Shown: piece by piece, positions 322 to 55,791 of the stretch
How the letters are laid out: each line of letters begins with the position of its first letter
How positions within the stretch are numbered: the first letter of the stretch is position 1
Assembly (NCBI GenBank): GCA_965219995.1
Contig: CBDCOX010000002.1
Coordinates: 1,472,001-1,536,000 of the forward strand
DNA: 64,000 nt
Source: Candidatus Latescibacterota bacterium
Lineage (GTDB): Bacteria; Latescibacterota; UBA2968; GCA-2709665
Direction: 5' to 3'
Translations under genes and position numbers: made by a program
The notes under the pieces: model-generated
Database searches by the model: none
Seen by the model: the letters and a program-made list of their open reading frames with translations, nothing else
Told to the model about the DNA's origin: nothing

Positions 322-3300
322 TCAGAAGAGGCTGAGCTGGTCCGCCTGCCTGACCCGCCGCTGTGCGGTCAGGCGTTCCCGCTTCAGGAGTTCCGTCGGA
401 ATATCCTCGAAGAACCGGGACGGCTCCGGGCGGGTCCGTTCGCCGAAACGCAACCTGCTCCGCGCGCAGAGCATCACGGCCTCGTCCTTCGCACGGGTCA
501 ATCCTACGAATAACAGCCGCCGTTCTTCCTCCGGGTCCGCGTCCGCGTGCGGAATCAGACCCTCCTCGACGCCGCAGATAAAGACCACGGGAAATTCCAG
601 CCCCTTGGATGCATGCAGGGTTGACAACGTCACAGCCTCGGCCCGTGGGCGCGTGGCGCCGCCGATGCGTATATAGTCGGCATCGGCGCCCAATACCAGC
701 GTATTGAGAAAACTCCGTACGGTATCGAAGTTGACCGCCATCCGCGCCAGGCGGGCCAGATCGTCGTCGTTTTCCGACGACGCCACGTCCTGCCACGCGC
801 TCACCAGCGTCTCGACGGATTCGGTTTTCGCCATTTTCCTGAATGCCGCCGCGGCATCCCGAAGCGCCGAAACCTTCTCACGGACGGACGCCGGCAGGTT
901 GCCGGCGGCGATGCCGTCAGCCGAGCGGTGGACCCGGTTGAGCGCCGCCATTCCGGGATGAAATACGGGAATCGCCAGCGCGCGCGAGAGGCGCACGCGT
1001 TCCACGGGAAGGAACGCGTAATTGAAAAACGCGATCGCGTGCCGCACGGGCTCCGCCGAGAGGAACCCCTTCTGACCCACCACGCGGTATGGCAGTCCTT
1101 CTTCCACAAAGCAACGCTCTATCGCCTCCGCCTGCCGGCCGGTCCTGAACAACACGGCAAAATCCGACAGGCCGCGGTCTTTCCGTCCCGCTACCGAATC
1201 CCCACCTCCGATCTCGTCGGCCTGAAGCATATCGGCGCCGCCCATCAACCGGCTGATCTCGCGGACCACCGCAATCCCCTCCGCCGTCTCACCCGCAACG
1301 GAAACCAGGCGGACGTCAAAGCCCTCTCCGCGGACCGCATCCAACCGGCGTTGACCCCGGATCACGGACGCTGCCGTATCGATCACCTGCCGTGTGGAGC
1401 GATATGTTCTCTTCAGAACAAACGTCCGTGCAGCCGGAAGATCCTCGCGCAGCCTGCGAAAATACACGGGACTCGCCCCCCGGAATCCGTAGATGGCCTG
1501 GTCAGGATCGCCGATGACGAACAGACCCGCCCCATCGCTGGAGAGCTCCGTCACGAGCCTGTACTGCACCGCATTCACGTCTTGAAACTCGTCCACCAGG
1601 ACGTGCGCGAACCGGTTTCGGACCCGGTCGGTAGCTGCGTCGCCTTTCCGCAGCATTGCCAGGAATTCCAGCAGAATGTCGTCGTAATCCCACACGTCCA
1701 GCTTACGCAAGCGTTCCTGGTAGGCCTGGTAGACCGCGTGCAACGCCTCCGGCGCCTCCGCCTCCGGATCGGTCTTCGCACGCGAGATCGCCGACCGTAC
1801 ATCTCTGACGGAGAGACCGGCATCTGCGTCGGCGACGGCCTCGGCCAACACCCGCGTCGCTTCCACCTCATCGATCACCTGGCGCATCTCCCGCGACCGG
1901 CCGGACTTCATCAGATCCAGCGCCGTGGCGTGGAACGTGCCCAGCATCAAACCGTCCAGCCCCGTGGCCCGGGGCAACAGCGCGCGAACGCGTTCCCGCA
2001 TCTCCGCGGCGGCCTTATTCGTAAACGTGACCGCCAGGATGGACTCCGGCGGCACGCCCTCCTCTCCAATCAGCCGCGCGACACGATGGGTCAATACCCG
2101 TGTCTTGCCCGTGCCCGGACCCGCCTCTACGATCACCGGACCGGCGTCACAGAAAACAGCCGCCCGCTGTACTTCGTCCAATCCGCCCGTGTCCGCGACG
2201 TCGCCTGTCACTTGCGCTTCACCGTTCCCGCCAGCGGGCGCTTCGGCCTGCGGCGGCGTTTTGGATGCCGTCACCGGCGTCGGCGCTTCCGGACCGGAGG
2301 GCAGATCGAACAGCGCGGGCTGGCGGCTCAGCCGGGCGCGGTCCTCCTCCGAGAACACCTGGATCCGTCCGTACACACCGTCGTAGCCGGCCGCGATCTC
2401 CACCTCCCCGGCCCGCATCCGGCGTACGCCCTCCCCCACGAGCGGTTCGCCGGCGGCGGCAATCGCCTCGGGGGACGCATCCCGCAAGATGGTGAGTTCA
2501 GGCCCCAGGTCCGCGAGCAGCCTTTCGTACACCCCCTGGACTCTCTTGCTGGTTGGCCCCACCCCCAATACGGAACCGATGACTTCCTGAAGTGGAATCA
2601 GATTCTCATACGGCGGCGCCACGGCGGGCCTCTCTCCTTCCGCCCTGTCGGCCAACTGCTCGACGCGGTGCAGCACCCCGACTGTCAACCGCCTGCCGCA
2701 CTCCGGGCACAGACAGTCCGCGTCGAGCGACTGCCTCGGCTCCCAGCAGATTCCGCACTTCCGATGTCCGTCCAGGTGATACTTGCCTTCTTCGGGATAG
2801 AACTCCAGCGTCCCCAGGAACCGTTCGGGGTCTCGTGTCTTCAGCGCATCGTACATGCCACGATAGGACAGATCGGTATCGAAACAGGTGGCCTCCCGCG
2901 CCAGTTTCTGCGGGGAATGCGCGTCCGAATTGGAAACGATCGCATACCTGTCCAGCATCGACAGCCGCCAGTTCATCGGCGGGTCTGACGAGAGTCCGGT
3001 CTCCACGACGAAGATCGCCGGCAGCATGTCCTCGAAGCACTCCTCGAGGGTGTCGAACCCGGAACTGGCGCCCAGCACCGCAAAATGGGGCGTCCAGATA
3101 TGCGCCGGAATGAACAGCACGTCGTCGGCCGCTTCCATGCAGATTTCCACGAGGTCCCGGCTGTCCAGGCCCAGGATAGGCCGACCGTCCGATTTCAGAT
3201 TTCCGATGTCTCCCAGGCGGGCATTCAACCGCTCCACGGCTTCAAACCCGGACATCAGCACCACGTGGTGCACCTTGCGGGTCCTGTCGTTCTTCTTGTA

Positions 3301-3591
3301 GATCACGCTGATCTCGGTGGACAGGACGAAACGCACCGGTCCCCGGCACCGTTCCGGGAGGTCTTTGTCCACCGCGGCCTGGAAGGCCGGCTTTAGCCGG
3401 AACAGCCCCTCCTCCGCGGGCTCCAGGCGGTCCTTCAATTCGTCGATCCATTCGGGATGGGTGAAATCGCCCGTCCCGACCACGTTTACGCCCTTGAGCG
3501 CGGACCACTTATATAGATTCTCCGGGTTCAGTTGACGGCTGGTCGCCCTGGAAAACCGGGAGTGCAGATGTACGTCCGCCACAAATCGCAT
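322..3591 (-). CDS. Endonuclease Q-like PHP domain fused to a UvrD/PcrA SF1 helicase
   Basis: N-term DVHLHSRFSRATS, GTGDFTHP, SNSDAHS, GKYHLDGHRKC and CPECG; C-term AGPGTGKT, TFTNKAA, VDEFQD, GDPDQAIYGFRG, TLHASKGLEF, EERRLLFVGLTRA. Confidence 0.92.
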   Translation of the reverse strand: MRFVADVHLHSRFSRATSRQLNPENLYKWSALKGVNVVGTGDFTHPEWIDELKDRLEPAEEGLFRLKPAFQAAVDKDLPERCRGPVRFVLSTEISVIYKKNDRTRKVHHVVLMSGFEAVERLNARLGDIGNLKSDGRPILGLDSRDLVEICMEAADDVLFIPAHIWTPHFAVLGASSGFDTLEECFEDMLPAIFVVETGLSSDPPMNWRLSMLDRYAIVSNSDAHSPQKLAREATCFDTDLSYRGMYDALKTRDPERFLGTLEFYPEEGKYHLDGHRKCGICWEPRQSLDADCLCPECGRRLTVGVLHRVEQLADRAEGERPAVAPPYENLIPLQEVIGSVLGVGPTSKRVQGVYERLLADLGPELTILRDASPEAIAAAGEPLVGEGVRRMRAGEVEIAAGYDGVYGRIQVFSEEDRARLSRQPALFDLPSGPEAPTPVTASKTPPQAEAPAGGNGEAQVTGDVADTGGLDEVQRAAVFCDAGPVIVEAGPGTGKTRVLTHRVARLIGEEGVPPESILAVTFTNKAAAEMRERVRALLPRATGLDGLMLGTFHATALDLMKSGRSREMRQVIDEVEATRVLAEAVADADAGLSVRDVRSAISRAKTDPEAEAPEALHAVYQAYQERLRKLDVWDYDDILLEFLAMLRKGDAATDRVRNRFAHVLVDEFQDVNAVQYRLVTELSSDGAGLFVIGDPDQAIYGFRGASPVYFRRLREDLPAARTFVLKRTYRSTRQVIDTAASVIRGQRRLDAVRGEGFDVRLVSVAGETAEGIAVVREISRLMGGADMLQADEIGGGDSVAGRKDRGLSDFAVLFRTGRQAEAIERCFVEEGLPYRVVGQKGFLSAEPVRHAIAFFNYAFLPVERVRLSRALAIPVFHPGMAALNRVHRSADGIAAGNLPASVREKVSALRDAAAAFRKMAKTESVETLVSAWQDVASSENDDDLARLARMAVNFDTVRSFLNTLVLGADADYIRIGGATRPRAEAVTLSTLHASKGLEFPVVFICGVEEGLIPHADADPEEERRLLFVGLTRAKDEAVMLCARSRLRFGERTRPEPSRFFEDIPTELLKRERLTAQRRVRQADQLSLF

Positions 3592-3621: not shown

Positions 3622-3671
3622 ACATGGACTTACATGGACTTACATGGATGGACAGGATGAACAGGATTAAA
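3622..3671 (+). repeat. Short tandem motif ACATGGATGGACAGGATGAACAGGAT (family copy 1)
   Basis: Near-identical ~29-bp core also at 9377, 32186 and 37702. Confidence 0.8.
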
Positions 3672-3681
3672 ACCAAAAAGC

Positions 3682-4501: not shown

Positions 4502-5098
4502 TCAGGTTTCCATCTGGCGGCGGTCTGATACCCGCTCGTATTTTTCACGCCCCGACGACACACACTGAAAGACCTGAAAACCCTTGATCTCAACCCACAT
4601 ATATATCCGGTGGCAGATATCGCACACCCGAAGCGGATGCTCTTCCGGACTCCGCTCGAAGCGGTAATCAAGATCGTCATATCCGCGACGGAGGTGCGCC
4701 ATGTCGTCGGGAGTATATCGCTCTGAAAGCAATGTGATAACAGCCGGAGGCAGGTCCGCCACCGCCTTCCGGAGTTTCCCTGGATCGACATCCCACGGAA
4801 TCGACAGTTCATAGCCGCAAGCGCACCACCTGTCGTGCATATCCCAGTCCGACTGAAACCACCACTCGTCGAAAATCCGCCGGCAGACCTCGCATAACTC
4901 ATACGACAACGCGGGATCCATTCCCTCTTCTTGGATCAGATCGTTGATCTGCCCACGCACCGCGTCCGGCAACTTCCCGAGCTTTACCGTTGACTTATGG
5001 CACCAGGCGCATTGGTGGTTGCCCCTCCGGATAATCACGATCACCACGATGGGCACTGCAATCACGACTGCCGCGAAAATCAGATACCAGATTATCAT
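4502..5098 (-). CDS. Membrane-anchored Cys-rich hypothetical protein (paralog B)
   Basis: N-terminal TM helix, then CAWCH, CEVC, CAC, CDICH; shares EGMDPA.SYE.C and LRVCDICHRIYMWVEI with paralog A. Confidence 0.85.
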   Translation of the reverse strand: MIIWYLIFAAVVIAVPIVVIVIIRRGNHQCAWCHKSTVKLGKLPDAVRGQINDLIQEEGMDPALSYELCEVCRRIFDEWWFQSDWDMHDRWCACGYELSIPWDVDPGKLRKAVADLPPAVITLLSERYTPDDMAHLRRGYDDLDYRFERSPEEHPLRVCDICHRIYMWVEIKGFQVFQCVSSGREKYERVSDRRQMET

Positions 5099-5438
5099 TG
5101 CGATTTACCCTCGCCGTTCACCGGATCGCGTGGCAAGAACAGAATCGCCGTTGTATCCGGCAGGAAATGTACTGTTCAGTATAGCGTTTCGCCGTTCGAA
5201 ATACAAGCACCGAGACAATGGCGAAGCCTGCCAATTCGCGCAGTCGACGACTCACGCATTCAGGTGATTAGCGAGGCCCAACCCGCTTGACCTTAACGTG
5301 CGTATCCGGCGACAGTTACGCCCAAATCCGATTGACCGAACGTTCGATTCCGCCTATATTGCTGCACTAATTCTCCGGTAGACATCAAGGCGTGCGTACT
5401 TATTGCCCACCGTTCGCAGGGAAGCCATTGATATACTT

Positions 5439-5765
5439 ATGAAGACGTCAGGAATCGACCAGAGTACGCTGGATGAAATCACTCGGCGCGTCGTTGAGGT
5501 CGCCCGACCGGAGAAGATCATCCTGTTCGGGTCCGCCGCACGGGGCGAGATGAACCGTCACAGCGACGTGGACCTGCTTATCATCAAAGACGGCGCGGAT
5601 GCGCTTGAACTTATGGGCGAAATCTATATGAATCTCGATGGCGTCGGCGCAACCGTTGACGCTGTTGTCGTCACGCCCGACGACGTAGAGCGGTATAACA
5701 ACAGCGACCCGGTGATCATCAGACCTGCGCCGCGGGAGGGAAAGGTGGTATATGAGTCCTCCTGA
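5439..5765 (+). CDS. Minimal nucleotidyltransferase (MNT) antitoxin
   Basis: IILFGSAARGE...SDVDLLI motif; overlaps the downstream HEPN gene. Confidence 0.88.
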   Translation: MKTSGIDQSTLDEITRRVVEVARPEKIILFGSAARGEMNRHSDVDLLIIKDGADALELMGEIYMNLDGVGATVDAVVVTPDDVERYNNSDPVIIRPAPREGKVVYESS

Positions 5766-6156
5766 GCGGTACCCGCCCGATGATCCGCGGGAATGGCTGA
5801 ACCGGGCTAGGAGTAGTCTGGCAATGGCTAAGAACCGAATTCCTGATGCCTATCTGGAAGATCTGTGCTTCCAGGCCCAACAGGCAGCCGAAAAGGCCAT
5901 CAAGGCAGTGATGATCGAGTGCGGCATCGACTTCCCATATGTGAGTGATTTAGCCCGGCTGCTATCCCTGCTTGAAGAAGGAGGAGAGAGCATCCCGGAG
6001 ATGGTCGTCAAGGCTGAGGAACTTACCCCATACGCTTTGATCACACGCTATCCTGGAACCGTCGGGCCTGTTGGTGAACAAGATTATATGGATGCGGTTA
6101 AGAATGCCGAAGTCGTCATTCGCTGGGCAGAGGAATGCATATCGGGATTCCCCTAG
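5752..6156 (+). CDS. HEPN domain protein (MNT-HEPN pair)
   Basis: W..RA..SL..A, CFQAQQAAEKAIKA, TRYPG. Confidence 0.88.
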   Translation: MSPPERYPPDDPREWLNRARSSLAMAKNRIPDAYLEDLCFQAQQAAEKAIKAVMIECGIDFPYVSDLARLLSLLEEGGESIPEMVVKAEELTPYALITRYPGTVGPVGEQDYMDAVKNAEVVIRWAEECISGFP

Positions 6157-9376: not shown

Positions 9377-9407
9377 TTTATCCTGGCCATCCTGTCCATC
9401 CATGTAA
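9377..9407 (-). repeat. ACATGGATGGACAGGATG-type motif (copy 2)
   Basis: Reverse complement reads ttacatggatggacaggatggccaggataaa. Confidence 0.75.
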
Positions 9408-9445
9408 GTTTGTCTTTTTTTGTTTTCCCGACTCAGGAGCCAGCC

Positions 9446-17563: not shown

Positions 17564-17902
17564 ATGAATGCGAAAACTCCACAAATAACAGAACCGCTTC
17601 TGGATGAGATCACGAGAAAAATCGTCGATCATTTTCATCCGGTTCAAATTGTACTTTTCGGCTCCTATGCCTATGGAGAGCCAACGAACGATAGCGACTT
17701 GGATTTGCTTGTCATAATGGACTCAGAATTGCGCCCGACAGCCCGAAGCGCCGCGGTTGCCAACATCTGTCGCCCCAAGTATGTCGCGATGGATATTGTC
17801 GTGCGTACACCTGAAGAAATCCAAACCCGCCTGCGTGACTTCGATCCATTTCTCGAAGGAATCTTTAAATTTGGACGCACCCTTTACAAATCAGCCGGGT
17901 GA
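17564..17902 (+). CDS. MNT nucleotidyltransferase antitoxin
   Basis: IVLFGSYAYGEP..DSDLDLLVI; exact start uncertain. Confidence 0.88.
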   Translation: MNAKTPQITEPLLDEITRKIVDHFHPVQIVLFGSYAYGEPTNDSDLDLLVIMDSELRPTARSAAVANICRPKYVAMDIVVRTPEEIQTRLRDFDPFLEGIFKFGRTLYKSAG

Positions 17903-18281
17903 TATACAAGCGTGGGTCTACAAAGCGGAAGAGGACTATCGCACGGCCACTACAATGGTTCGGAAACGCAGCGAACCTGTTCCCGACAATGTTTGTTTCT
18001 GTGCGCATCAATGCATTGAAAAGTACCTCAAAGCTCTTCTTGTCTTCCATCGCGTTCATTTTCCGAAAACTCACGATCTTCTGGCACTGTTGGATTTCGC
18101 GGTGGATATAGATTCCGATCTCGAGGAATTGCGACTTGATCTCAATTATCTATACCCGTTTGCCGTTGAATATCGCTATCCCGGGGAAAACGCGACTGTC
18201 GAAGAATCAAAAAAGACAGTAAGGGTAATGCTGCGCGGGCGGCGCATTCTGAGGGCGAAACTGAACATAACTGATGTGTGA
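17871..18281 (+). CDS. HEPN domain protein
   Basis: W..KAEEDY, CF.AHQCIEKYLKA, PKTHDL, YRYPG; TTG start inferred. Confidence 0.88.
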   Translation: MDAPFTNQPGDIQAWVYKAEEDYRTATTMVRKRSEPVPDNVCFCAHQCIEKYLKALLVFHRVHFPKTHDLLALLDFAVDIDSDLEELRLDLNYLYPFAVEYRYPGENATVEESKKTVRVMLRGRRILRAKLNITDV

Positions 18282-25848: not shown

Positions 25849-26709
25849 TCATCCCCATTTCAAGTCCGAAACGACCGGATAGTGGTCGCTGGGGTAGAGC
25901 GAACCCCGGTGGCGCCGTACGATCCAGGACTCTTCCACCTCCACCTCAACGGCGGGACAGCGGTAGAGGACCCAGTCCAAACGCCAGGAGAGATGATGCT
26001 GGAGCAAGTCGTATGCCGGTCCGTCATAGCCGTGATAGGTGTTCGACGCCGGACCGTCGCGAAGTCCGGCGCTCAGAAACGCGTCTTCGAAGCCTTTCTC
26101 TAGAAGGAAGCGATGTACCGCGTCGGTGATGGTGCTGCCCGCCGCGGCGGGATCCTCCACGCGGGGCGTCCACGGGTTGCAGTTGAAGTCTGCCGTCAGC
26201 AATTGGCGCTCCCCAGGTCTTGCAGCCGACGATATCCATCGGTTCAGCAGCGATGCGCCTTCGGTCCGCGCCTGCTCGCTGATGTGATCGAGATGGGTGT
26301 TGACATGTAGAAATTCCGCGTCAGTCGCCAGGTCGCGAAACCGGACCCACGTCGCCGTCCGAACGCAGGCCGATCCCCAGGAACGCGAGTAGTACTCCGG
26401 GGTTGCGCTGATCCAGAATCCGCCCCTCGAGCGTGGCCGAAGCCTCTCCCGCCGCCAGTAAACCGGGTTGAAGAGGTGGGGTGGATCGTTGGCGTGCGGG
26501 CCCTGGAAACTGTCGTACGCCTCCAGAGATTCGCCGAATGTGGCGAAATTCGGCCACTGAACTTCCTGAAAGCCGATAAGATCCGGCGACGTATCATCGA
26601 CCACCTCGCAGACCAGACCGGAGCGACCGGAACCGGTCCAGGCGTTCTCCGGCTCGTGTTCGTCGTATCCGCCGGCAATGTTGAAACTCATGACGCGAAG
26701 ACTTTCCAT
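25849..26709 (-). CDS. Endonuclease/exonuclease/phosphatase family protein
   Basis: MSFNI, GFQE, NTHLD, ADFN, LDWV, PSDHYPV. Confidence 0.9.
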   Translation of the reverse strand: MESLRVMSFNIAGGYDEHEPENAWTGSGRSGLVCEVVDDTSPDLIGFQEVQWPNFATFGESLEAYDSFQGPHANDPPHLFNPVYWRRERLRPRSRGGFWISATPEYYSRSWGSACVRTATWVRFRDLATDAEFLHVNTHLDHISEQARTEGASLLNRWISSAARPGERQLLTADFNCNPWTPRVEDPAAAGSTITDAVHRFLLEKGFEDAFLSAGLRDGPASNTYHGYDGPAYDLLQHHLSWRLDWVLYRCPAVEVEVEESWIVRRHRGSLYPSDHYPVVSDLKWG

Positions 26710-26783
26710 CTACCTGTACGGTCCTTCCGTTTTTCGGCATGTATGGACTCGATGTCCGGAATCCGAATCCTTCCGCTCCTGGA

Positions 26784-27089
26784 TTATCCGCCGGGGATGC
26801 GCGGACGCACCTCCCGGTCCAACCTGTCCGAAAGCTCGTCCTCGGCGACCTCGAGTTCATAGTTGGTCTGAATGCTCATCCAGTATCTGGGTGAGGTGTA
26901 GAAATATCGCGCGAGCCTCAACGCCGTATCCGCGGTGATGCCGCGTTTGCCCAGGACAATCTCATTGATGCGGCGAGGGGGCACCCCGATGGATAGTGCC
27001 AGATGGTTCTGGCTTAGATCCATCGGCTTGAGAAACTGTTCCAGCAATACGATTCCGGGATGAACGGGAACCGTTTCCCCAGCAGACAT
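26784..27089 (-). CDS. higA: HigA/VapI addiction-module antitoxin (orphan)
   Basis: PVHPG..L.E.FLKPM.LSQ..LA..IGVPPRRINEIVLGKRGITADTALRLARYF; no higB upstream. Confidence 0.92.
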   Translation of the reverse strand: MSAGETVPVHPGIVLLEQFLKPMDLSQNHLALSIGVPPRRINEIVLGKRGITADTALRLARYFYTSPRYWMSIQTNYELEVAEDELSDRLDREVRPRIPGG

Positions 27090-27161
27090 AGATTCATCTC
27101 CACGGGCGATCGTCTGCGTGTACAACCTCACAGGCGGCGCGGGCGGGACCGCCGCCAGGAT

Positions 27162-27190
27162 ATTATATAACGTTTTTCGTTAAATGACAA
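27162..27190 (-). promoter_or_regulatory. Sigma70 promoter of higA with an internal palindromic operator
   Basis: Minus strand TTGTCA-17 bp-TATAAT; spacer contains TAACG-N5-CGTTA (27168-27182). Confidence 0.85.
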
Positions 27191-27317
27191 GTGTTAAATG
27201 AGATACGTTTAATATAATATATTAAATTATAAACGTTAAATGATTTTCATTAAATGGTATCCGTTTAATGTATCTCGTTTAATGTTATCCGTTAAACGTT
27301 TTACGTTATATCTTAAG
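27178..27317. repeat. Ten-unit 14-bp tandem array, consensus CGTT(A/T)AATG-N5
   Basis: Units start at 27178, 27192, 27206, 27220, 27234, 27248, 27262, 27276, 27290, 27304; 33 G+C in 140 bp. Confidence 0.9.
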
Positions 27318-27360
27318 GCGAACACAATCGTGGGAGACCCTCACCCCCCAGCCCCGCAAA

Positions 27361-27400
27361 CCTCTCCCCCCGGCCCCCTCTCCCGGGGGGAGAGGGGGTG
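27361..27400. repeat. GC-rich palindromic REP-like element
   Basis: CCCCCTCTCCC/GGGAGAGGGGG inverted repeat. Confidence 0.6.
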
Positions 27401-27437
27401 AAAACCGGAAAATCCGGCCACGCGTCGGGCGGAGCGG

Positions 27438-28127
27438 TCAGCTTTGGGTGATCCGCAGCATGTTCGAGTCGCCTCGGCGGAACTCGAAGGGCACGGGTAC
27501 GCGTTCGACGTTTGCCGACCGTTGCAGGGTCTGAATGGTAGCGCGCAGATGCTCCGATGGATTGCCGGCCAGGTCGAACAATGGAAATACCCGGACCTCT
27601 CTCCCCACTCGAAGCAGTTCCCGGAGGAATGAAAGGTGCGTTTCGAGGTTGAATTCCGAGGAGAACAGAAACAACATGTGGGAACAGAGGACGAGATCGA
27701 AGAATTTCGACCGGAAGGGTAAGGCGGGAAGAACCCCAGAGACGTACCGGCCACGCCGGTCTTCCGACCGGAAGTCGCGGAGGAAGGTTGCGAGAACGTC
27801 CCGTCGCAGCTGGATAACCGCTTCGGGGCTACCGTAGTGGTTCCACAGAAACCGTTCACGCGCCTTTCGCGTTCCCGCAAGCATGCGCGCGCCTGTGCGT
27901 TCGAAATCGGCTTCCAGGTTCCGGCCTGAGAACCTGTAGATTGGATCGACGGCGACGACGAATCGCCCTGTCCCGCCCCATTCTGCGGAGAATGACGACG
28001 TTCCGCCTCCGCAGTCCAGTATCCGCGCGGATGACGGGACATCGGACAACGCGAAGAACGCCTCGTATTCAGCCGCGCAGCGGCCCCAGGCGGGAACGGA
28101 ACCGCCGAAATCGAACTCACTGGACAT
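27438..28127 (-). CDS. SAM-dependent methyltransferase
   Basis: GR...EY..FF.L, ILDCGGG.SSF, FDLVLCSH.LF, EVRVFPL. Confidence 0.85.
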   Translation of the reverse strand: MSSEFDFGGSVPAWGRCAAEYEAFFALSDVPSSARILDCGGGTSSFSAEWGGTGRFVVAVDPIYRFSGRNLEADFERTGARMLAGTRKARERFLWNHYGSPEAVIQLRRDVLATFLRDFRSEDRRGRYVSGVLPALPFRSKFFDLVLCSHMLFLFSSEFNLETHLSFLRELLRVGREVRVFPLFDLAGNPSEHLRATIQTLQRSANVERVPVPFEFRRGDSNMLRITQS

Positions 28128-28243
28128 CAGGTGGACAGCCAGGAACGAACACCGAATTCAACATCTACAACTCTCCAAAATCCCTAAAGGAGGTCGAAAA
28201 ACAGCAATGTGCGACCGTCTGCCAACAATTGTCAGTTAGAATC

Positions 28244-28469
28244 AGAGTCGAGAATCAAATTCAACATCCACATCTCCCCAAATTCCCTGCCTCCGGCGGG
28301 TTCCTTTTGAAGCGACCAAAAGGAACCAAAAGTCGCCGCTGGGCGCGGGGCCTGCGATATGCACAGCGCGAACACCCTCACAGGACGCTGGAGATTCTCT
28401 GGCCTTGCACCTGTGGAAGCATATCGAACCGCGTTGCTGGACGGATCAGCGCGCTCTGCTCTGGAAGTC
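28244..28469. repeat. Structured non-coding element, copy A (132-nt core, pseudoknot and tail)
   Basis: 28338-28469 aligns without gaps to 33054-33185; tail similar to 32843-32890. Confidence 0.7.
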
Positions 28470-28586
28470 GTCCGGTCTGGTAACACCTTCGTGGCCCGAT
28501 TGGCGCCTGAATGATGAGGACAGCCGTTAGCCGAAACCGGTTAGCGAAACGGTCAAGCGACTTCAATTCACGGACATCTGGCTTTC

Positions 28587-32214: not shown

Positions 32215-32744
32215 ACCCACAGGCCGGGAAGTTCCCGGTTACGGGATAAAGCGACGAGTCCGGCAACTCCGGACGCAACATCAACCAAAGAAGCGATCTG
32301 GCACAATCAAGATTGTCATCTATTTCTGCGCTAACATGATTGAAAAACAACCTATAGAACAAAAAACACTGCCTTGCGTGAATAACTCGTTGAATTGCAC
32401 AAAGCGGAAATTCACTTTGGATAGACAGGAAAAAAAAGCGGAAGCAGGAACCTGTCAAATCGGATACGAAGGGCTTCGCGACCCCCGACGTGCCGTCAGC
32501 AACGGACCGCACCACGACAAGTTAGAATTCTTACGTCGAATCGCCAAGAGAGAAAGTCATCCGCCTTCTGAACCGGAAGGATTCGTCGGGAACGAGAAAT
32601 TCCAACCGGTCGCACAGGAAGGAGCCGGTAGTCGCGTTGCCAGTCTTCCCACGTCGACGTGTCGTTTACGTATGTGAACACTGCGATGCTTTCGTACAGC
32701 AACAATGGTGGCCGGTGTCAATATACTGCGGCTAAATGGGAGAA

Positions 32745-33480: not shown

Positions 33481-34062
33481 CCTTCAGGCGTCCATCAAGC
33501 GATGGCAGTTCCCAGACGATTCAGCATATTCCGATTGAGATCCGACTCGATTTGCGGACCGTCGGTAGCACAACGCGGAGGCAAGCTACGGCGGCGCAAG
33601 TCAGAGCATCGATTAGAAAGCCGGTTGCGGACGGCGGCGATGCCACGTGGGAAAGGGTAACGGCTGCAGAATACGCCGAATCGTTCCCGGAGCCGGACCT
33701 CGTCAACCGGGAGGCCTTGAGATTGGTTAGGGAAGCTATTTGAGTGGGATGTTGTCTCGATACAGCTATTTTTCTACACAGTCGGATGGACGATCTAATT
33801 CCAGCTTTCACGTGAGAACTCGAACTCCGGATGCGACTGGTTGGATGCCAAACCGGGTACCTGCCATTTAAATTTCTGCTTCGTCGTCATTGACGATATA
33901 AGATTGAAATTTAACACGTTACAAAAAACATCACTTGATTCCAGGCGGAAATCCTGATATATTTTCTTTCAAGGACGTGAGACATAATATCGGCGTCTTA
34001 TCTCACGATCGGAAAGTGAGTTCCAGTTCTCGATACAATTGAAGAAAGGGGTGCAGGACGCG

Positions 34063-34299
34063 ATGAAGCAGACTATGGATGCTGTATATGAAAATGGAGT
34101 CTTCAGGCCATTAAATGCACCCGAACTGTCTGAGGGCCAATTCGTTCGCATTGAAATCGAAACTCCTTTAAAGGAAAGTTCCGATGATCTTCTTGAATTA
34201 GCCGCAAGAGTCTATGAAGGACTTTCCAAAAACGTTATTGACGCCGTAGAGAAGATTGCAAACGACCGACGCGGCTTTTTCGAAAACAGGAACCAATGA
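34063..34299 (+). CDS. AF2212/DUF104-like antitoxin
   Basis: AVYENGVFRPL...LSEGQ.V.I. Confidence 0.87.
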   Translation: MKQTMDAVYENGVFRPLNAPELSEGQFVRIEIETPLKESSDDLLELAARVYEGLSKNVIDAVEKIANDRRGFFENRNQ

Positions 34300-34709
34300 T
34301 GGCACTGGCCAGGGTGGCGTTGGATACGAACATCCTCAGCGCCATTATGCGCCGAAAATCCTCAGTAATTCCAACGGCCGGGGCTTATCTCAGAGAGCAC
34401 CATCAGTTCCATATTTCCATTATAACACGATATGAGATTCTGCGTGGCCTTATGGCAAACGATGCGGTTCGACAGATTGTGTCGTTTGAGGATTTCTGTT
34501 CGCGAAATATCGTCCTTCCCTTAAATGAGGAAACCATATCTAAGGCCGCCGAAATTTACGCGGATTTGCACAAACGGGGCGAGCTGATCGGAGATGCAGA
34601 CATTTTAATTGCAGCTTCCGCAGTGGTTCACGGGCTTGGGGTCGTGACCAACAATGAGAGGCATTTTCGTCGGATTTCGGATCTCCATGTTGAGAATTGG
34701 TTAAAATAG
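34296..34709 (+). CDS. vapC: VapC PIN-domain toxin
   Basis: LDTNILS, E, DADILIAASA, TNNERHF.RI..L..ENW. Confidence 0.92.
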   Translation: MMALARVALDTNILSAIMRRKSSVIPTAGAYLREHHQFHISIITRYEILRGLMANDAVRQIVSFEDFCSRNIVLPLNEETISKAAEIYADLHKRGELIGDADILIAASAVVHGLGVVTNNERHFRRISDLHVENWLK

Positions 34710-37701: not shown

Positions 37702-37730
37702 TTTATCCTGTTCATCCTGTCCATCCATGT
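37702..37730 (-). repeat. ACATGGATGGACAGGATGAACAGGATAAA motif (copy 4)
   Basis: Reverse complement matches the family core. Confidence 0.8.
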
Positions 37731-37956
37731 TAGTTCATGCTTAGTAAGTTATCCAGGTTTCAGACATTGGATTACGAATTACGTCTGGCGAACGTCCGGC
37801 GCCTCTGATGTCATTCGAAGCGTCGGCGAATGCACTTCGGCAAGCTCAGCACAAGCAACGCAGGCAGGGAAAGCAGCGCAGACAATATAAACAACGTAGC
37901 GAGAGGGGATGAATCGTCGGAAGAATGGTGGGGTATTTCCGGGACAGGACACCAGG

Positions 37957-40350: not shown

Positions 40351-40626
40351 CTACTTGAGGTTCAAAACCAGTTCCTTACCCAATGCCCTGGCGGCCTTTC
40401 TCAGCGTTGACAGCCGGATGTCTCCCGCGCGGTTTTCCAGGCGGGAAATCGCCGTTTTCTTTGTATGCATCAACCTGGCCAGCTGCTCCTGAGTCAGGCC
40501 GGCCTCCACCCGGGCCTGCCGAAGCAAGACACCGAATTCAAACTCCTTGTACCCTCCCTCAAAACCCTCTGCAAATTCAGGATCTGCCTTTTTTCGCCGC
40601 GCGATATACTCTTCGACATCACTCAT
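40351..40626 (-). CDS. XRE/HTH antitoxin
   Basis: LRQARVEAGLTQEQLA......TAISRLEN....RLSTL.KAA.ALG. Confidence 0.87.
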   Translation of the reverse strand: MSDVEEYIARRKKADPEFAEGFEGGYKEFEFGVLLRQARVEAGLTQEQLARLMHTKKTAISRLENRAGDIRLSTLRKAARALGKELVLNLK

Positions 40627-40688
40627 GACTCCCGCTCCCGGTGACGATTCATATAATCCCTCATGTAACTCTCCGCTCTTTTGATTTC
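40623..40688 (-). pseudogene. C-terminal remnant of a RelE/Gp49-like toxin
   Basis: EIKRAESYMRDYMNRHRERES-stop, with ATGA overlap onto the antitoxin start; in-frame stop just upstream. Confidence 0.5.
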
Positions 40689-40795
40689 TCAAGTATCCAT
40701 TTTTGAAGCCTCCTTAGAGTGTCCATGAAAGAGAATGAGTCTGAACACCCCGAAAGGGCGCTAACAAAGATAACATATTCGTTAACTTCAGGCAC

Positions 40796-49507: not shown

Positions 49508-49747
49508 TCAGTCGTCATCAACATCTTTGTGAAGTGGTCGTCTGTTTTCCTTCGTGACCCGAATCAGGAATCGCAATGCTTCATTCACGGAGTTAGCGTC
49601 GGGAAACACTTTGGCAACATCAGGTTCCAGCTGAACGGCAAATTTACCGAAACTCTTTCGTCCAGGACCCACTTTCCTCACCGTCAGGCTTTTCAAGTCA
49701 TACTCAGCCCGCATTTCGTCCTGCAATGTCGCCTCAATCTTCTTCAT
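49508..49747 (-). CDS. BrnA-like antitoxin
   Basis: DEMRAEYDL, V.LEPDVAKVFPDANSVNEALRFLI. Confidence 0.85.
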   Translation of the reverse strand: MKKIEATLQDEMRAEYDLKSLTVRKVGPGRKSFGKFAVQLEPDVAKVFPDANSVNEALRFLIRVTKENRRPLHKDVDDD

Positions 49748-50012
49748 AATCTCGTCGCTCCCTACGGGTTGCTTCTCTTGCACCAATCAGACGAATAACG
49801 TCGCCACGCTCGGTGTACGATACGATCAACAAGCGGCCTTGAGTTGACTGCCCAACCATGATAAATCGTTGCTCGTTGTAAGAATGGTCCGGGTCGTAGA
49901 AATCAACATGGAGCGGATCCTCGAAAACGGATTTCGCCTCATCAAATGCCACACCATGTTTTGATAAGTTAGCCGCTGCTTTTTCTTCGTTCCACTCGTA
50001 TTCCGTTGACAT
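49734..50012 (-). CDS. brnT: BrnT (DUF497) toxin
   Basis: EWNEEKA..NL.KHGV.FDEA..VF.DP, IRLIGAREAT..ER..YE. Confidence 0.92.
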   Translation of the reverse strand: MSTEYEWNEEKAAANLSKHGVAFDEAKSVFEDPLHVDFYDPDHSYNEQRFIMVGQSTQGRLLIVSYTERGDVIRLIGAREATRRERRDYEED

Positions 50013-50172
50013 CGGACCCTTGCCAAGCACGGCGCCTGATCATTTAAACACTCTGTACAATATAGACGTGAATACTGGTAGCTGCAAGGTCGATTTTCGA
50101 AGATTCCTAAATTCGGCCCGGCGAGAAATGTCTGGGTCCTGTGTTATATAGTCGGGATGCCTTCATCCGGCG

Positions 50173-54680: not shown

Positions 54681-55580
54681 CTAACATTCCCCGGTGTTGG
54701 TTCCCAAAAATATCCTTGGTGCATCCCGTGGCAGCTCGCAGACATGCACCAGGAAGGCCATCGCTCGTTCGGCGTTTTTCGCCGGAAACCGGAATCGATA
54801 GTGATTTCCGACGACCCTCGCGGCCCGTGTGAACAACCTTTGGATCGCGAACAGCGACTCCCGAATATCGTCGTAGTCGGATCCAGCGTATGTGCGCTCG
54901 AACTCCCGCCAGTCCTCGGACTCGAGGTGCTTCTCCAGGTCCCTGCCTTCGCTTCCCAGCGAACTCTCAAACCCCTTCGTTACGCCAATGTACCAACCGA
55001 GCATCAGGACGAGATCCTGCCGCAGGCGTTCGACGTGACACTTCAACAGTGGAAGCTTTCGTCGCCACAGAGTCTTCGGAATATGCGAGCCGAGGGTGAA
55101 GCAGAACGTGTTACAGCAATCGTCGTACAGCTTCTGTGTCGGTTCCGTGATGGAATGGCTTCGTTCACTGGGATTCGGGAGATCGGGGATGAGACCGTCC
55201 TTGTCCAGCAGGACCCGGGTCAGGCTGTCAAAAGGGCGCTTCTCCAGCATTTCGACAGGGAAAAATGCCATATCGATGCGATTGCCGTCGGTAAACTGGA
55301 CGTTGTATGTATAGCGACCGTCTCGTAGCCCGGGTCGGTAGACCTGATCCTCTACTTTCTCTACCAGCAACGGTACTCCAAAGTACGGAACGACGCGACT
55401 TTCTTCTCTGAAGGGTTCGACGTCGGTGACGAAGATTGAAATATCGTAATCCTGTAAGATGTCCCTCTCGGCGTTCGGGTTGGCACGAGACCCATTCATC
55501 ACAACCGCGCGAATGCGGTCATCGGACCGGGCGAATTCGAGGACCAGCGACAACACTTCCTCTTCGGTTTGCGTCCTCAA
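54681..55580 (-). CDS. Aminoglycoside 6-adenylyltransferase family (AadE/AadK-like)
   Basis: D.RIRAVVMNGSRANP, QDYDI, DGNRID, VLLDKDG; TTG start after GAGG. Confidence 0.88.
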   Translation of the reverse strand: MRTQTEEEVLSLVLEFARSDDRIRAVVMNGSRANPNAERDILQDYDISIFVTDVEPFREESRVVPYFGVPLLVEKVEDQVYRPGLRDGRYTYNVQFTDGNRIDMAFFPVEMLEKRPFDSLTRVLLDKDGLIPDLPNPSERSHSITEPTQKLYDDCCNTFCFTLGSHIPKTLWRRKLPLLKCHVERLRQDLVLMLGWYIGVTKGFESSLGSEGRDLEKHLESEDWREFERTYAGSDYDDIRESLFAIQRLFTRAARVVGNHYRFRFPAKNAERAMAFLVHVCELPRDAPRIFLGTNTGEC

Positions 55581-55791
55581 GTGATCCTCTTCACATCTCA
55601 AAACTGAGACTATCCGGCGCAGAATTCTGTACCAACCATCGTCAGTCCAGTAACAGTGGACAGACAGAATCCCGCTGGCGGTACTGGAAGTCCAACGGAT
55701 TGTCTCACATTGAAATTGCCAAGACATCTTTTCGACCTAGATCCCGTGGGATGGAGAAGCACAATTGCGCACAAAATCGGGTTCTACGCAC

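Follow-up and report, generated by a model that had tools for sequence, protein, structure and literature searches.

In the window (the whole 64-kb stretch of DNA that was analysed), a higA gene without a toxin gene is preceded by palindromes set end to end in a strict 14-bp phase. On balance we favour the reading that this array is a tenfold expanded autoregulatory operator of the toxin-less HigA, at which cooperative binding would result in steep autorepression, and the array is probably a working multi-site switch rather than leftover repeat DNA. The earlier note on this DNA had proposed to look for similar arrays beside other higA genes, and one is present in an independently assembled, syntenic Gemmatimonadota MAG (L001), whose HigA is 88% identical to that of the window.

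Architecture of the array and the higA promoter

The whole array occupies positions 27164..27317 and consists of 11 units of 14 bp, which form ten abutting TAACG-N5-CGTTA sites starting at 27168+14n. Ten of these units run in phase from 27178+14n and end at 27317, and an eleventh (27164-27177) contributes the left half of the perfect palindrome. Unit columns 3, 4 and 7 are invariant, columns 1, 2, 6 and 8 agree in 8-9 of the 10 units, and the last five positions of each unit are variable. Periods of 14 and 28 were called by Tandem Repeats Finder, with 67-82% matches. The array has 22% G+C; the value for 27160-27317 is 0.22 compared with 0.586 for the window, the lowest of any 150-bp stretch in the 64 kb.

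Each in-phase site from 27168 onwards was scored out of 10. The promoter-proximal operator (27168..27182) is a perfect TAACG-N5-CGTTA (10/10, as in L001). It is followed by six weaker sites (27182..27266; starts 27182, 27196, 27210, 27224, 27238 and 27252) scoring 7, 7, 6, 7, 7 and 7/10, and by a distal cluster of three strong sites (27266..27308; starts 27266, 27280 and 27294) scoring 8, 9 and 9/10. The registers flanking the array score 2-3/10. The earlier note had described a perfect copy at the promoter, a near-perfect copy at the far end and variants of the same palindrome at every junction; the first two descriptions hold (the far copy, 27294-27308, scores 9/10), and near-perfect sites are confined to the two ends of the array, as the six middle sites reach only 6-7/10. 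The summed in-phase score is 77/100, compared with 34.9 +/- 2.2 (maximum 45) for shuffles of the same 161 bases, and none of 5000 shuffles reached it. Self-identity at a lag of 14 is 0.58, compared with 0.32 +/- 0.04 for shuffles. When one mismatch was allowed, TAACG-N5-CGTTA had four matches in the window compared with 0.96 expected, three of the four being inside the array, and none of 100 shuffles had four or more. The ten-site, 14-bp-phased array in an A+T-rich island is real on these counts. We give a negligible probability to the array having arisen in assembly or being low-complexity sequence produced by chance, given that another species has the same array in its own, independently assembled MAG and that the in-phase score was reached by 0/5000 shuffles.

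The half-period (7-bp) register of the array scores 3-7/10 with a mean of 5.1. GraA-like interdigitated 7-bp sites were rejected on the grounds that no half-period site reaches 8/10, and the arrangement of two dimers interdigitated round a central TAACGTTA palindrome (7-bp offset) is not found in the array. Folded as DNA, the array strand gave z = -2.6 relative to shuffles, 2 of 200 shuffles being equally good. A cruciform or hairpin role was also rejected, as inverted half-sites would by themselves lead to such folding and the centroid structure has little strength.

A promoter scan placed the higA promoter on the minus strand, with a -10 hexamer TATAAT (27162..27167), a -35 hexamer TTGTCA (27185..27190), a 17-nt spacer and 11/12 matches. 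L001 has TATAAA at the matching position and an identical -35 hexamer. At the level of sequence, the perfect operator at 27168-27182 falls inside the -35/-10 spacer, where the earlier note had put it, and the putative operator would overlap the promoter of its own gene as in type II higBA modules. The distance from the -10 box to the higA start is about 73 nt (27090-27161), and the 5' leader, with a transcription start inferred from the -10 box, would measure about 66-74 nt (27090..27155, minus strand). A GC hairpin proposed for this leader found no support, since the predicted folding of the leader is not stronger than that of shuffles (z = -0.41 in the window and 0.19 in L001) and the hairpin is not conserved in L001. 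Leader length differs between the two genomes (74 vs 84 nt), with an identity of 50/92 in a gapped alignment.

Two further elements were noted outside the register of the array. An operator-like site scoring 8/10 (27062..27076) lies within the first higA codons and is possibly due to chance; the same 15 bases occur at the equivalent codons of L001, but these codons specify conserved residues. A G+C-rich perfect palindrome found by regular expression (27374..27398) separates the array from the methyltransferase gene upstream of it. It is likely a terminator or a REP-like boundary outside the array, and a related element is also found upstream of the L001 array.

A HigA without HigB and the operator of its clade

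The gene higA (26784..27089, minus strand) encodes 101 amino acids plus a stop and belongs to the HigA family of XRE helix-turn-helix proteins. TIGR02607 matched its product with 96.4 bits (cut-off 47.7; E = 6.3e-28; profile positions 4-80 of 81) and Pfam HTH_3 with 33.9 bits vs 23. Residues 6-99 align with the Pseudomonas aeruginosa HigA structures (7csv, 6jpi) and with GraA (6f8s). The start codon is likely the ATG at 27089 rather than the GTG at 27131 given earlier, because homologues align from residue 1 and a GGAG lies 8 nt upstream of the ATG. The reported absence of higB in cis was confirmed. The HigB gene (PF05015) that stands upstream in the same operon in type II higBA modules is missing, no open reading frame fits upstream, tblastn with the HigB of a relative gave a best E of 0.52 over the whole 64 kb, and no higB remnant was detected in the leader by tblastn. 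Several other TA-like pairs are present in the window, which is a TA-rich genome region.

To evaluate the operator, the window was compared with 79 related higA loci, made up of 61 with a full-length HigB, L001 and 17 others; PF05015 was confirmed for the HigB of L003 and L004 only. Nine of the 79 loci lack any higB and nine more have a partial match only (three of these at contig edges). In 58 of the 61 paired loci, the 300 bp upstream of higB contain one or more sites with a score of at least 8/10, where base frequencies predict about 0.1 per locus. Of these sites, 94 in all, 87 begin no more than 60 bp from the start of higB. Paired promoters usually carry one or two TAACG-N5-CGTTA sites, with site pairs offset by 7 bp (23 pairs), 14 bp (21) or 16 bp (9), and scores further upstream drop to background (0-5/10). 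The perfect site of the window occupies the same promoter position as the main operator of paired higBA loci, and the promoter of L004, the closest paired relative, nearly matches the three proximal units of the window. The site over the -35 box scores 7/10 in the window and 5/10 in L001, compared with 8-9/10 in paired promoters. The recognition helix of HigA (residues 39-45 and 48-49; RRINEIV and KR) is identical in 60-61 of the 61 paired relatives. Because the palindrome lies over 58/61 related higBA promoters and the recognition helix is unchanged, the array unit is, judged from these comparisons, the operator of the window HigA's own clade, in agreement with the earlier proposal that the repeat is HigA's apparent operator.

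Two positions set this HigA apart. The E of the HPGE motif (E13) is present in all 61 paired and all 17 other loci and is replaced by I in the window and by R in L001. E13 and E/D18 are invariant in all 78 other loci and both are replaced only in the window/L001 lineage, the window having Q at position 18. Among further proteins seen, a non-acidic residue 13 together with Q/R18 occurs only in five close relatives (P0002, which is 97% identical, P0003, P0005, P0006 and P0007). In the available portions of the structural papers on homologues, nothing was found on a role for E13 or E18. Complex prediction with two window HigA chains and the HigB of L003 gave a score of 0.32, compared with 0.01 for the best of three controls, with at least 64% contact agreement between runs and a partner pLDDT of at least 84. 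Of 157 solved complexes, 116 reached the mark used, as did 2 of 215 mismatched pairs; at scores of 0.60 or below it was reached by only 18 of those 157 and by both passing mismatches. Like complexes have already been solved and may have been memorised by the predictor, and we take the prediction as a likeness and not as binding.

These observations bear on the possibility, in our estimation rather unlikely, that the array serves chiefly in trans, either as a store or sink from which the arrival of a cognate HigB would set HigA free, or as a buffer for the free HigA that other operators can draw on. In the first variant, the HigB could come, for instance, from a paralogous higBA module, a plasmid or a phage and the promoter would be de-repressed, making the locus an anti-addiction or toxin-sensing device. 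Orphan antitoxins are widely noted, and the available text of PMC7354431 reports proposals that they are remnants, act as regulators or form anti-addiction modules; the toxin of GraTA is described as stripping the antitoxin off its operator (PMC6393540, available part). Both descriptions would suit such a store, as would the other TA-like pairs of the window and, weakly, the predicted complex with the L003 HigB. The 64 kb searched contain no HigB-like gene, and sites scoring at least 8/10 outside the array number 10 in the window compared with 18.3 in 30 shuffles. This lack of enrichment argues against dispersed targets of a store and also led us to reject a HigA regulon within the window. The strongest site lies on the promoter, which points to control in cis, and the loss of E13 and E/D18, kept by all paired relatives, could mean that toxin contact has been abandoned.

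A general link between arrays and higB loss, for which the earlier note had suggested a test, was rejected. Of the nine loci without higB among the 79, L001 alone has an array; the eight others lack any site scoring at least 8/10 (0/8) and all keep E13 and E18, and at most two sites in 14-bp phase occur at any of the 78 other loci.

Selection on the array and its probable function

The window and L001 share 10.3 kb of synteny at 75-83% nucleotide identity, and four neighbouring genes differ at synonymous sites by a pS of 0.46-0.55. The L001 array (4768-4916) matches that of the window unit for unit, with 11 units and no indel over 149 bp, and has the same promoter arrangement and no higB. The selection test covered these 149 aligned bases from two genomes with genomic context. 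Core positions are identical at 82/99 and spacers at 32/50 (Fisher p = 0.014), and exclusion of the promoter units gave 59/72 and 23/40 (p = 0.007). Three unit columns are identical across all 11 unit pairs and an inner TT-W-A is invariant in all units of both genomes. The distal units are among the best preserved in both; by hand count on units, the three distal sites of L001 score 9, 8 and 9/10. That the same 11 units persist without an indel and that cores are more conserved than spacers argue for selection on the half-sites and their phase rather than recent slippage, as had been proposed. The higA gene itself, with a dN of 0.057, a dS of 0.592 and a dN/dS of about 0.10, shows the highest conservation among the five genes examined and, on this two-genome comparison, is maintained under clear purifying selection.

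This conservation makes it unlikely, in our view, that the array is a relic, that is, a two-site operator amplified by slippage or unequal exchange near the time of higB loss, of which only the proximal site works and the rest decays neutrally. The degenerate middle units (6-7/10) would suit such a history, as would the 28-bp super-period with 67-82% matches, which duplication of a two-site unit would leave, and the restriction of the array to one lineage among the 79 loci. Neutral decay sits poorly with the retention of unit number, register and 149-bp length across a divergence of about 50% at synonymous sites, over which the adjacent leader did change its length, with the excess of core over spacer conservation, and with the good preservation in both genomes of units distant from the promoter.

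We consider it very unlikely that the array serves another protein or an architectural role, such as a nucleoid-associated or silencing protein, a partition site or a replication site. Such a role could account for the array being the most A+T-rich 150 bp of the window, and the antitoxin PrpA, which reportedly binds replication iterons, would be a precedent. Contiguous repeats overlapping a promoter are moreover a hallmark of omega/parS and ParR/parC (PMC9499535, available text). The repeat is, however, exactly the palindrome that the family of the adjacent gene has as its operator, set at a spacing known from that family, and the locus is chromosomal and syntenic in two genomes. Scanning of 76 window open reading frames with Pfam revealed no ParA, ParM, Rep, integrase or transposase, a result that also tells against the centromere-like locus put forward in the earlier note. 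An Rfam search of 26000-28500 returned only a microRNA model at E = 0.8, far under its gathering score, and a blastn search in distant mode with 27140-27335 found no array-like DNA in plasmids or phages, a weak negative given that A+T-rich repeats may be filtered.

Under the favoured reading, an expanded autoregulatory operator, the locus would build on the usual higBA promoter of its relatives, in which each of one or two palindromes over the -35 and -10 boxes is the site of one HigA dimer, often with 14 bp between sites. The ten end-to-end palindromes, which begin at the -10 box and reach about 150 bp further upstream, would extend this arrangement for an antitoxin that has lost its toxin. 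HigA dimers may nucleate at the strong ends (the perfect proximal site and the three distal sites), and the six weak in-phase sites would then be filled cooperatively. With 14 bp per site and 10.5 bp per turn, neighbouring dimers would be rotated by about 120 degrees, so that three dimers make four helical turns. The resulting continuous protein coat, holding about 20 HigA monomers on the DNA, would shut the higA promoter in a steep, switch-like response. The only basis for letting abutting dimers pack in this way is the 21 site pairs at 14 bp in paired promoters, because solved homologues set their two dimers at a 7-bp offset.

Several features run counter to an array-wide switch. The six middle sites reach only 6-7/10, the proximal site alone would suffice for simple repression, and the -35 site is weaker in the window and L001 than in paired promoters. 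A different protein could in principle recognise the conserved TT-W-A core, and the replaced E13 and E/D18 could bear on DNA binding or dimer packing. A possible though doubtful extension is that HigA has been domesticated as a toxin-independent DNA coat of ten dimers along 141 bp, in which the E13 and E/D18 replacements would let dimers pack or grip and which would function either as a digital switch or as a store of antitoxin that senses HigB.

Comparison with known systems

Type II antitoxins repress their own promoters via one or two sites, and long multi-site operators are known from ribbon-helix-helix proteins, either with a toxin as the bridge (ccd) or with centromere binding as a second role (omega, ParR). 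ParR/parC-type centromeres, like omega/parS, are contiguous repeats over the promoter of the binder's gene. The window differs in having a helix-turn-helix HigA without a toxin that has ten strictly phased abutting operators, selected in two species. A literature search found no HigA or orphan-antitoxin operator array described, which does not prove that none has been published.

The window HigA belongs to the same protein family as the canonical higBA and graTA antitoxins (6JPI/6LB3 and 6F8H/6FIX; E about 1e-19 to 1e-16), and as for GraA and P. aeruginosa HigA, its putative operator lies over the promoter from which the antitoxin itself is expressed. The available parts of PMC6393540 and PMC6987408 describe TAAC half-sites 7 bp apart in those operators, with two dimers needed and cooperative binding. 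The TAAC/GTTA half-sites of the window are likewise 7 bp apart, as in the published GraA operator (PMC6393540; table parsed by the present author). The GraA and HigA operators, as far as those texts describe them, hold two dimers at a 7-bp offset on opposite faces over about 28-33 bp, whereas the window has ten sites at a 14-bp end-to-end offset over about 141 bp. In canonical higBA and graTA a toxin is encoded upstream of the antitoxin and in the window none is; the acidic residue 13 of canonical HigA and GraA, together with residue 18 of the clade's paired members, is replaced in the window.

The ccdAB operator of plasmid F offers a likeness in length. It spans 113 bp with eight antitoxin sites, a chain of CcdA dimers spirals round the DNA, and the modelling of its authors shows that multiplicity leads to a digital switch (PMC5389731, available text); this modelling provides a precedent for switch logic based on multiplicity. 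CcdA is, in contrast, a ribbon-helix-helix protein of low site specificity whose dimers are bridged by the toxin CcdB, and the window combines a helix-turn-helix HigA with well-defined, strictly phased sites and no toxin in cis for bridging. The omega/parS system of pSM19035 resembles the window in having a contiguous site array over its own promoter, which in the window reaches from the -10 box upstream. The available text of PMC9499535 reports 7-10 contiguous repeats over the promoter of the binding protein, each bound by one dimer, a single repeat having low affinity and adjacent repeats high affinity. Omega differs in being a ribbon-helix-helix protein with 7-bp non-palindromic repeats, a centromere function and a ParA ATPase gene beside it; the window has an XRE helix-turn-helix protein and no ParA gene among its 76 scanned open reading frames, and its locus is chromosomal and syntenic across two species.

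With other orphan antitoxins the window higA shares a type II antitoxin gene without a toxin gene, and it is unlike those compared here in that an expanded operator, altered conserved residues and purifying selection are found in the window lineage only. Annotations of orphan antitoxins are usually dismissed as debris, and this higA is clearly maintained. The scope is modest, being one small lineage of uncultured bacteria. The locus would nevertheless show a TA remnant rebuilt into a stand-alone regulator and, with its strong ends and weak middle, would offer a compact natural system for the cooperative filling of site arrays. If the domesticated HigA coat is true, it would be a natural helix-turn-helix equivalent of the repeat operators of ccd and omega, one that works without a bridging partner.

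The higA locus and its operator array

The higA gene (26784-27089, minus strand) encodes 101 aa from an ATG, with a GGAG 8 nt upstream, and its product was identified as HigA by TIGR02607 (96.4 bits against a cut-off of 47.7). A near-consensus promoter facing the gene (TTGTCA, 17 nt, TATAAT; 27190-27162) leaves no room for higB between itself and higA, and a tblastn search of the 64-kb window using a relative's HigB as query returned a best E value of 0.52. The array and higA are flanked by a methyltransferase gene (27438-28127) and an Exo_endo_phos protein gene (25849-26709). As both flanking genes lie on the minus strand, the array is the upstream region of higA alone.

The array forms an A+T-rich island (27160-27317) of 22% G+C within a window of 58.6% G+C, and holds the lowest-G+C 150 bp of the entire 64 kb. 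Its 14-bp units are strictly phased: ten begin at 27178+14n, and one more, at 27164, provides the left half-site of the first palindrome. Tandem Repeats Finder called periods of 14 and 28. The resulting ten abutting TAACG-N5-CGTTA sites (27168+14n) match 10, 7, 7, 6, 7, 7, 7, 8, 9 and 9 of the ten specified bases, so that the strongest sites stand at both ends, and the flanking registers score 2-3. The perfect copy sits inside the spacer between the -35 and -10 boxes. Analysis of 5000 shuffles of the same bases gave an in-phase sum of 34.9 ± 2.2 with a maximum of 45, compared with 77/100 for the array, confirming the structure that the earlier note had described from sequence alone. Likewise, lag-14 self-identity was 0.58 versus 0.32 ± 0.04 in shuffles. 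Allowing up to one mismatch, the window contains four copies of the palindrome (0.96 expected), three of them within the array. A GC hairpin proposed for the leader was not supported.

Elsewhere, the next-lowest G+C stretches (33866-34015 and 32288-32437; 0.35-0.37) adjoin an AF2212-like/PIN pair (34039-34709), and the neighbourhood is otherwise a succession of small accessory enzymes (GNAT, methyltransferase, histidine phosphatase and GrpB). A 1089-aa UvrD-family helicase (322-3591, minus strand) has no Pfam match at E <= 1e-5 over its first ~470 residues. An ORF at 54681-55727 (minus strand) with a full-length match to PF04439, the streptomycin adenylyltransferase family (E = 8e-83), looks by homology like an aminoglycoside nucleotidyltransferase, and no genes of mobile elements were found adjacent to it.

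Conservation of the array in a second species

A Gemmatimonadota MAG locus (L001) is syntenic with the window over all of its 10.3 kb at 75-83% nucleotide identity, indicating that the window derives from a related but distinct species. Like the window, L001 lacks higB and carries 11 units, bounded at both ends as in the window; its -35 hexamer is unchanged, its proximal site is perfect and its distal sites are strong. Because this genome was assembled independently, an assembly artefact is ruled out. The array measures 149 bp in both genomes and aligns without an indel. Identity was 82/99 at core positions versus 32/50 at spacer positions (Fisher p = 0.014), and 59/72 versus 23/40 (p = 0.007) when the three promoter units were left out; unit columns 3, 4 and 6 were identical in 11/11 unit pairs. 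The proportion of synonymous differences in four neighbouring genes was 0.46-0.55, the leader adjoining the array (74 versus 84 nt) retained 50/92 identical positions in a gapped alignment, and the DNA upstream of the array did not align. HigA itself, at 88% identity, was the best conserved of five proteins compared (higA dN 0.057, dS 0.592). These data are difficult to reconcile with a neutral relic of slippage, given that the array is conserved without indels and its distal sites are well preserved. The greater conservation of core over spacer and the absence of indels instead support a conserved array under selection, bearing out what had been suggested from the single sequence.

An operator-like site scoring 8/10 also lies inside higA codons 5-9 (27062-27076; L001 ~5013-5027), identical in both genomes and falling in the lineage-specific N-terminal stretch GETVPV. 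This site might act as an auxiliary downstream operator or simply reflect coding constraint. Both genomes additionally carry dispersed, intergenic G+C-rich palindromic elements (window 27374-27398, 3638-3677, 9377-9411 and 37702-37735; L001 186-228 and 4500-4660). One ~40-bp L001 element matches three window places at 94-97% identity, and the elements look like REP- or MITE-like repeats common to the two genomes.

The operator of the HigA clade and the array-bearing lineage

One genome-collection scan with the HigA protein matched 596 stretches, 548 of which proved to be relatives, and the best 80 of these yielded 79 loci with HigA 55-88% identical. Full-length HigB is encoded directly upstream in 61 loci (PF05015 was confirmed for L003 and L004 only), nine loci have no higB, and nine have a partial or frameshifted match, three of these at contig edges. 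The 61 paired promoters share the plan cATAACG-cTTGA-CGTTwAACG-N5-CGTTATAnaaT, with the higB start ~10 nt further on; two TAACG-N5-CGTTA palindromes are thereby present, one over the -35 box and the other filling the spacer. Within 300 bp upstream of higB, 58/61 paired loci have at least one site of at least 8/10 (none in 3 loci, one in 30, two in 21, three in 6 and four in 1), and 87 of the 94 sites begin no more than 60 bp from the higB start. The promoter of L004, a paired locus with HigA 78% identical, is nearly the same as the three proximal units of the window. The recognition helix is also shared, with R39, R40, I41, N42, E43, I44, V45, K48 and R49 in 60-61 of the 61 paired HigA proteins. 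The palindromes of paired promoters and the unchanged helix support the earlier assignment of the units as HigA operator.

Across L003-L079, the ~60 bp upstream of higB display one palindrome in three layouts, offset by 7 bp (23 pairs), 14 bp (21) or 16 bp (9). The 7-bp layout is that of GraA and P. aeruginosa HigA, and the three provide a natural series for the study of dimer-dimer geometry.

In six paired promoters that were compared, the 14-bp register further upstream falls to a background of 0-5/10. The longest in-phase run at 7/10 or better is six sites in the window, four in L001 and at most two in the other 78 loci. A link between the array and higB loss had been proposed; no operator site occurs in any of the eight other higB-less loci, so losing the toxin does not generally lead to array expansion. 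Stages of higB decay beside an intact higA (only the C-terminal 20-60 codons, or frameshifts) are seen in L015, L021, L028, L029, L030 and L053, all of which keep E13 and E18, with operator sites only in L028 and L030.

The lineage is further distinguished by HigA residues 13 and 18 (window 27051-27053 and 27036-27038; L001 5037-5039 and 5052-5054). All 61 paired and all 17 other loci encode E13 of the HPGE motif, compared with I13 in the window and R13 in L001; at residue 18, E or D occurs in 61/61 paired loci and E in 17/17 others, compared with Q18 in both array-bearing genomes. Among the 120 best matches listed from a large protein database, 39 proteins were compared. In the six nearest to the window's HigA (79-97% identity), position 13 is occupied by T, I, R or K and position 18 by Q or R, indicating that the lineage has several members; 29 of the rest have E13 and E18, and four have A13 and E18. 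Position 13 differs from one close relative to another, as though the constraint on it had been relaxed or were being retuned.

Proposed function and comparison with known systems

The array is most likely an expanded autoregulatory operator of higA. A role as a trans-acting store or toxin sensor is possible, as anti-addiction has been proposed for orphan antitoxins (PMC7354431) and other TA-like pairs are abundant in the window: besides the AF2212-like/PIN pair, these TA-like features comprise a nucleotidyltransferase/HEPN pair (5403-6156), a lone HEPN protein (17757-18281), a further XRE helix-turn-helix gene (40351-40692) and a BrnT toxin preceded by a small ORF (49508-50030). Complex prediction of the window HigA with the HigB of paired locus L003 scored 0.32 (best control 0.01), with predicted contact agreement of at least 64% and partner pLDDT of at least 84, and lends this role weak support. 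The mark was reached by 116/157 solved complexes and 2/215 mismatched pairs, but scores of 0.60 or lower include only 18 of those 157 and both passing mismatches, and the pass may reflect memory of solved HigBA complexes.

The closest solved structures to the window HigA are a Coxiella HigA, P. aeruginosa HigA and P. putida GraA. According to PMC6393540 and PMC6987408, GraA and P. aeruginosa HigA recognize TAAC half-sites through cooperative binding by two dimers, a lone dimer not being stably bound. The GraA operator printed in the former, by our parsing, gives TAAC-N7-GTTA per dimer, the geometry of TAACG-N5-CGTTA. The two dimers of these homologues interdigitate at a 7-bp offset, unlike the 14-bp abutting sites of the array. 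Here each site is turned 120 degrees from the preceding one, and the 126 bp from first to last site equal 12.0 turns (10.5 bp per turn), so that both face the same way. We infer that HigA binds the array, with nucleation at the strong ends; the six weaker sites would then be filled cooperatively, resulting in steep, switch-like higA repression and a bound pool of ~20 HigA monomers. This model is the simplest because the solved homologues are cooperative.

Multi-site logic has a precedent in the ccdAB operator, where eight sites lie in 113 bp and multiplicity produced a digital switch in the authors' modelling, although there the toxin bridges dimers of another fold (PMC5389731). For contiguous repeats over a binding protein's own promoter, the omega/parS heptad arrays provide the precedent, but they require a ParA partner (PMC9499535), and no ParA was found among 76 ORFs scanned in the window. 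Reading of the array by a different protein, or a function as centromere or origin, similarly lacks a supporting gene among those ORFs. As a probable expanded operator of higA, the locus would be a variation on antitoxin autoregulation, an already-known type of control.
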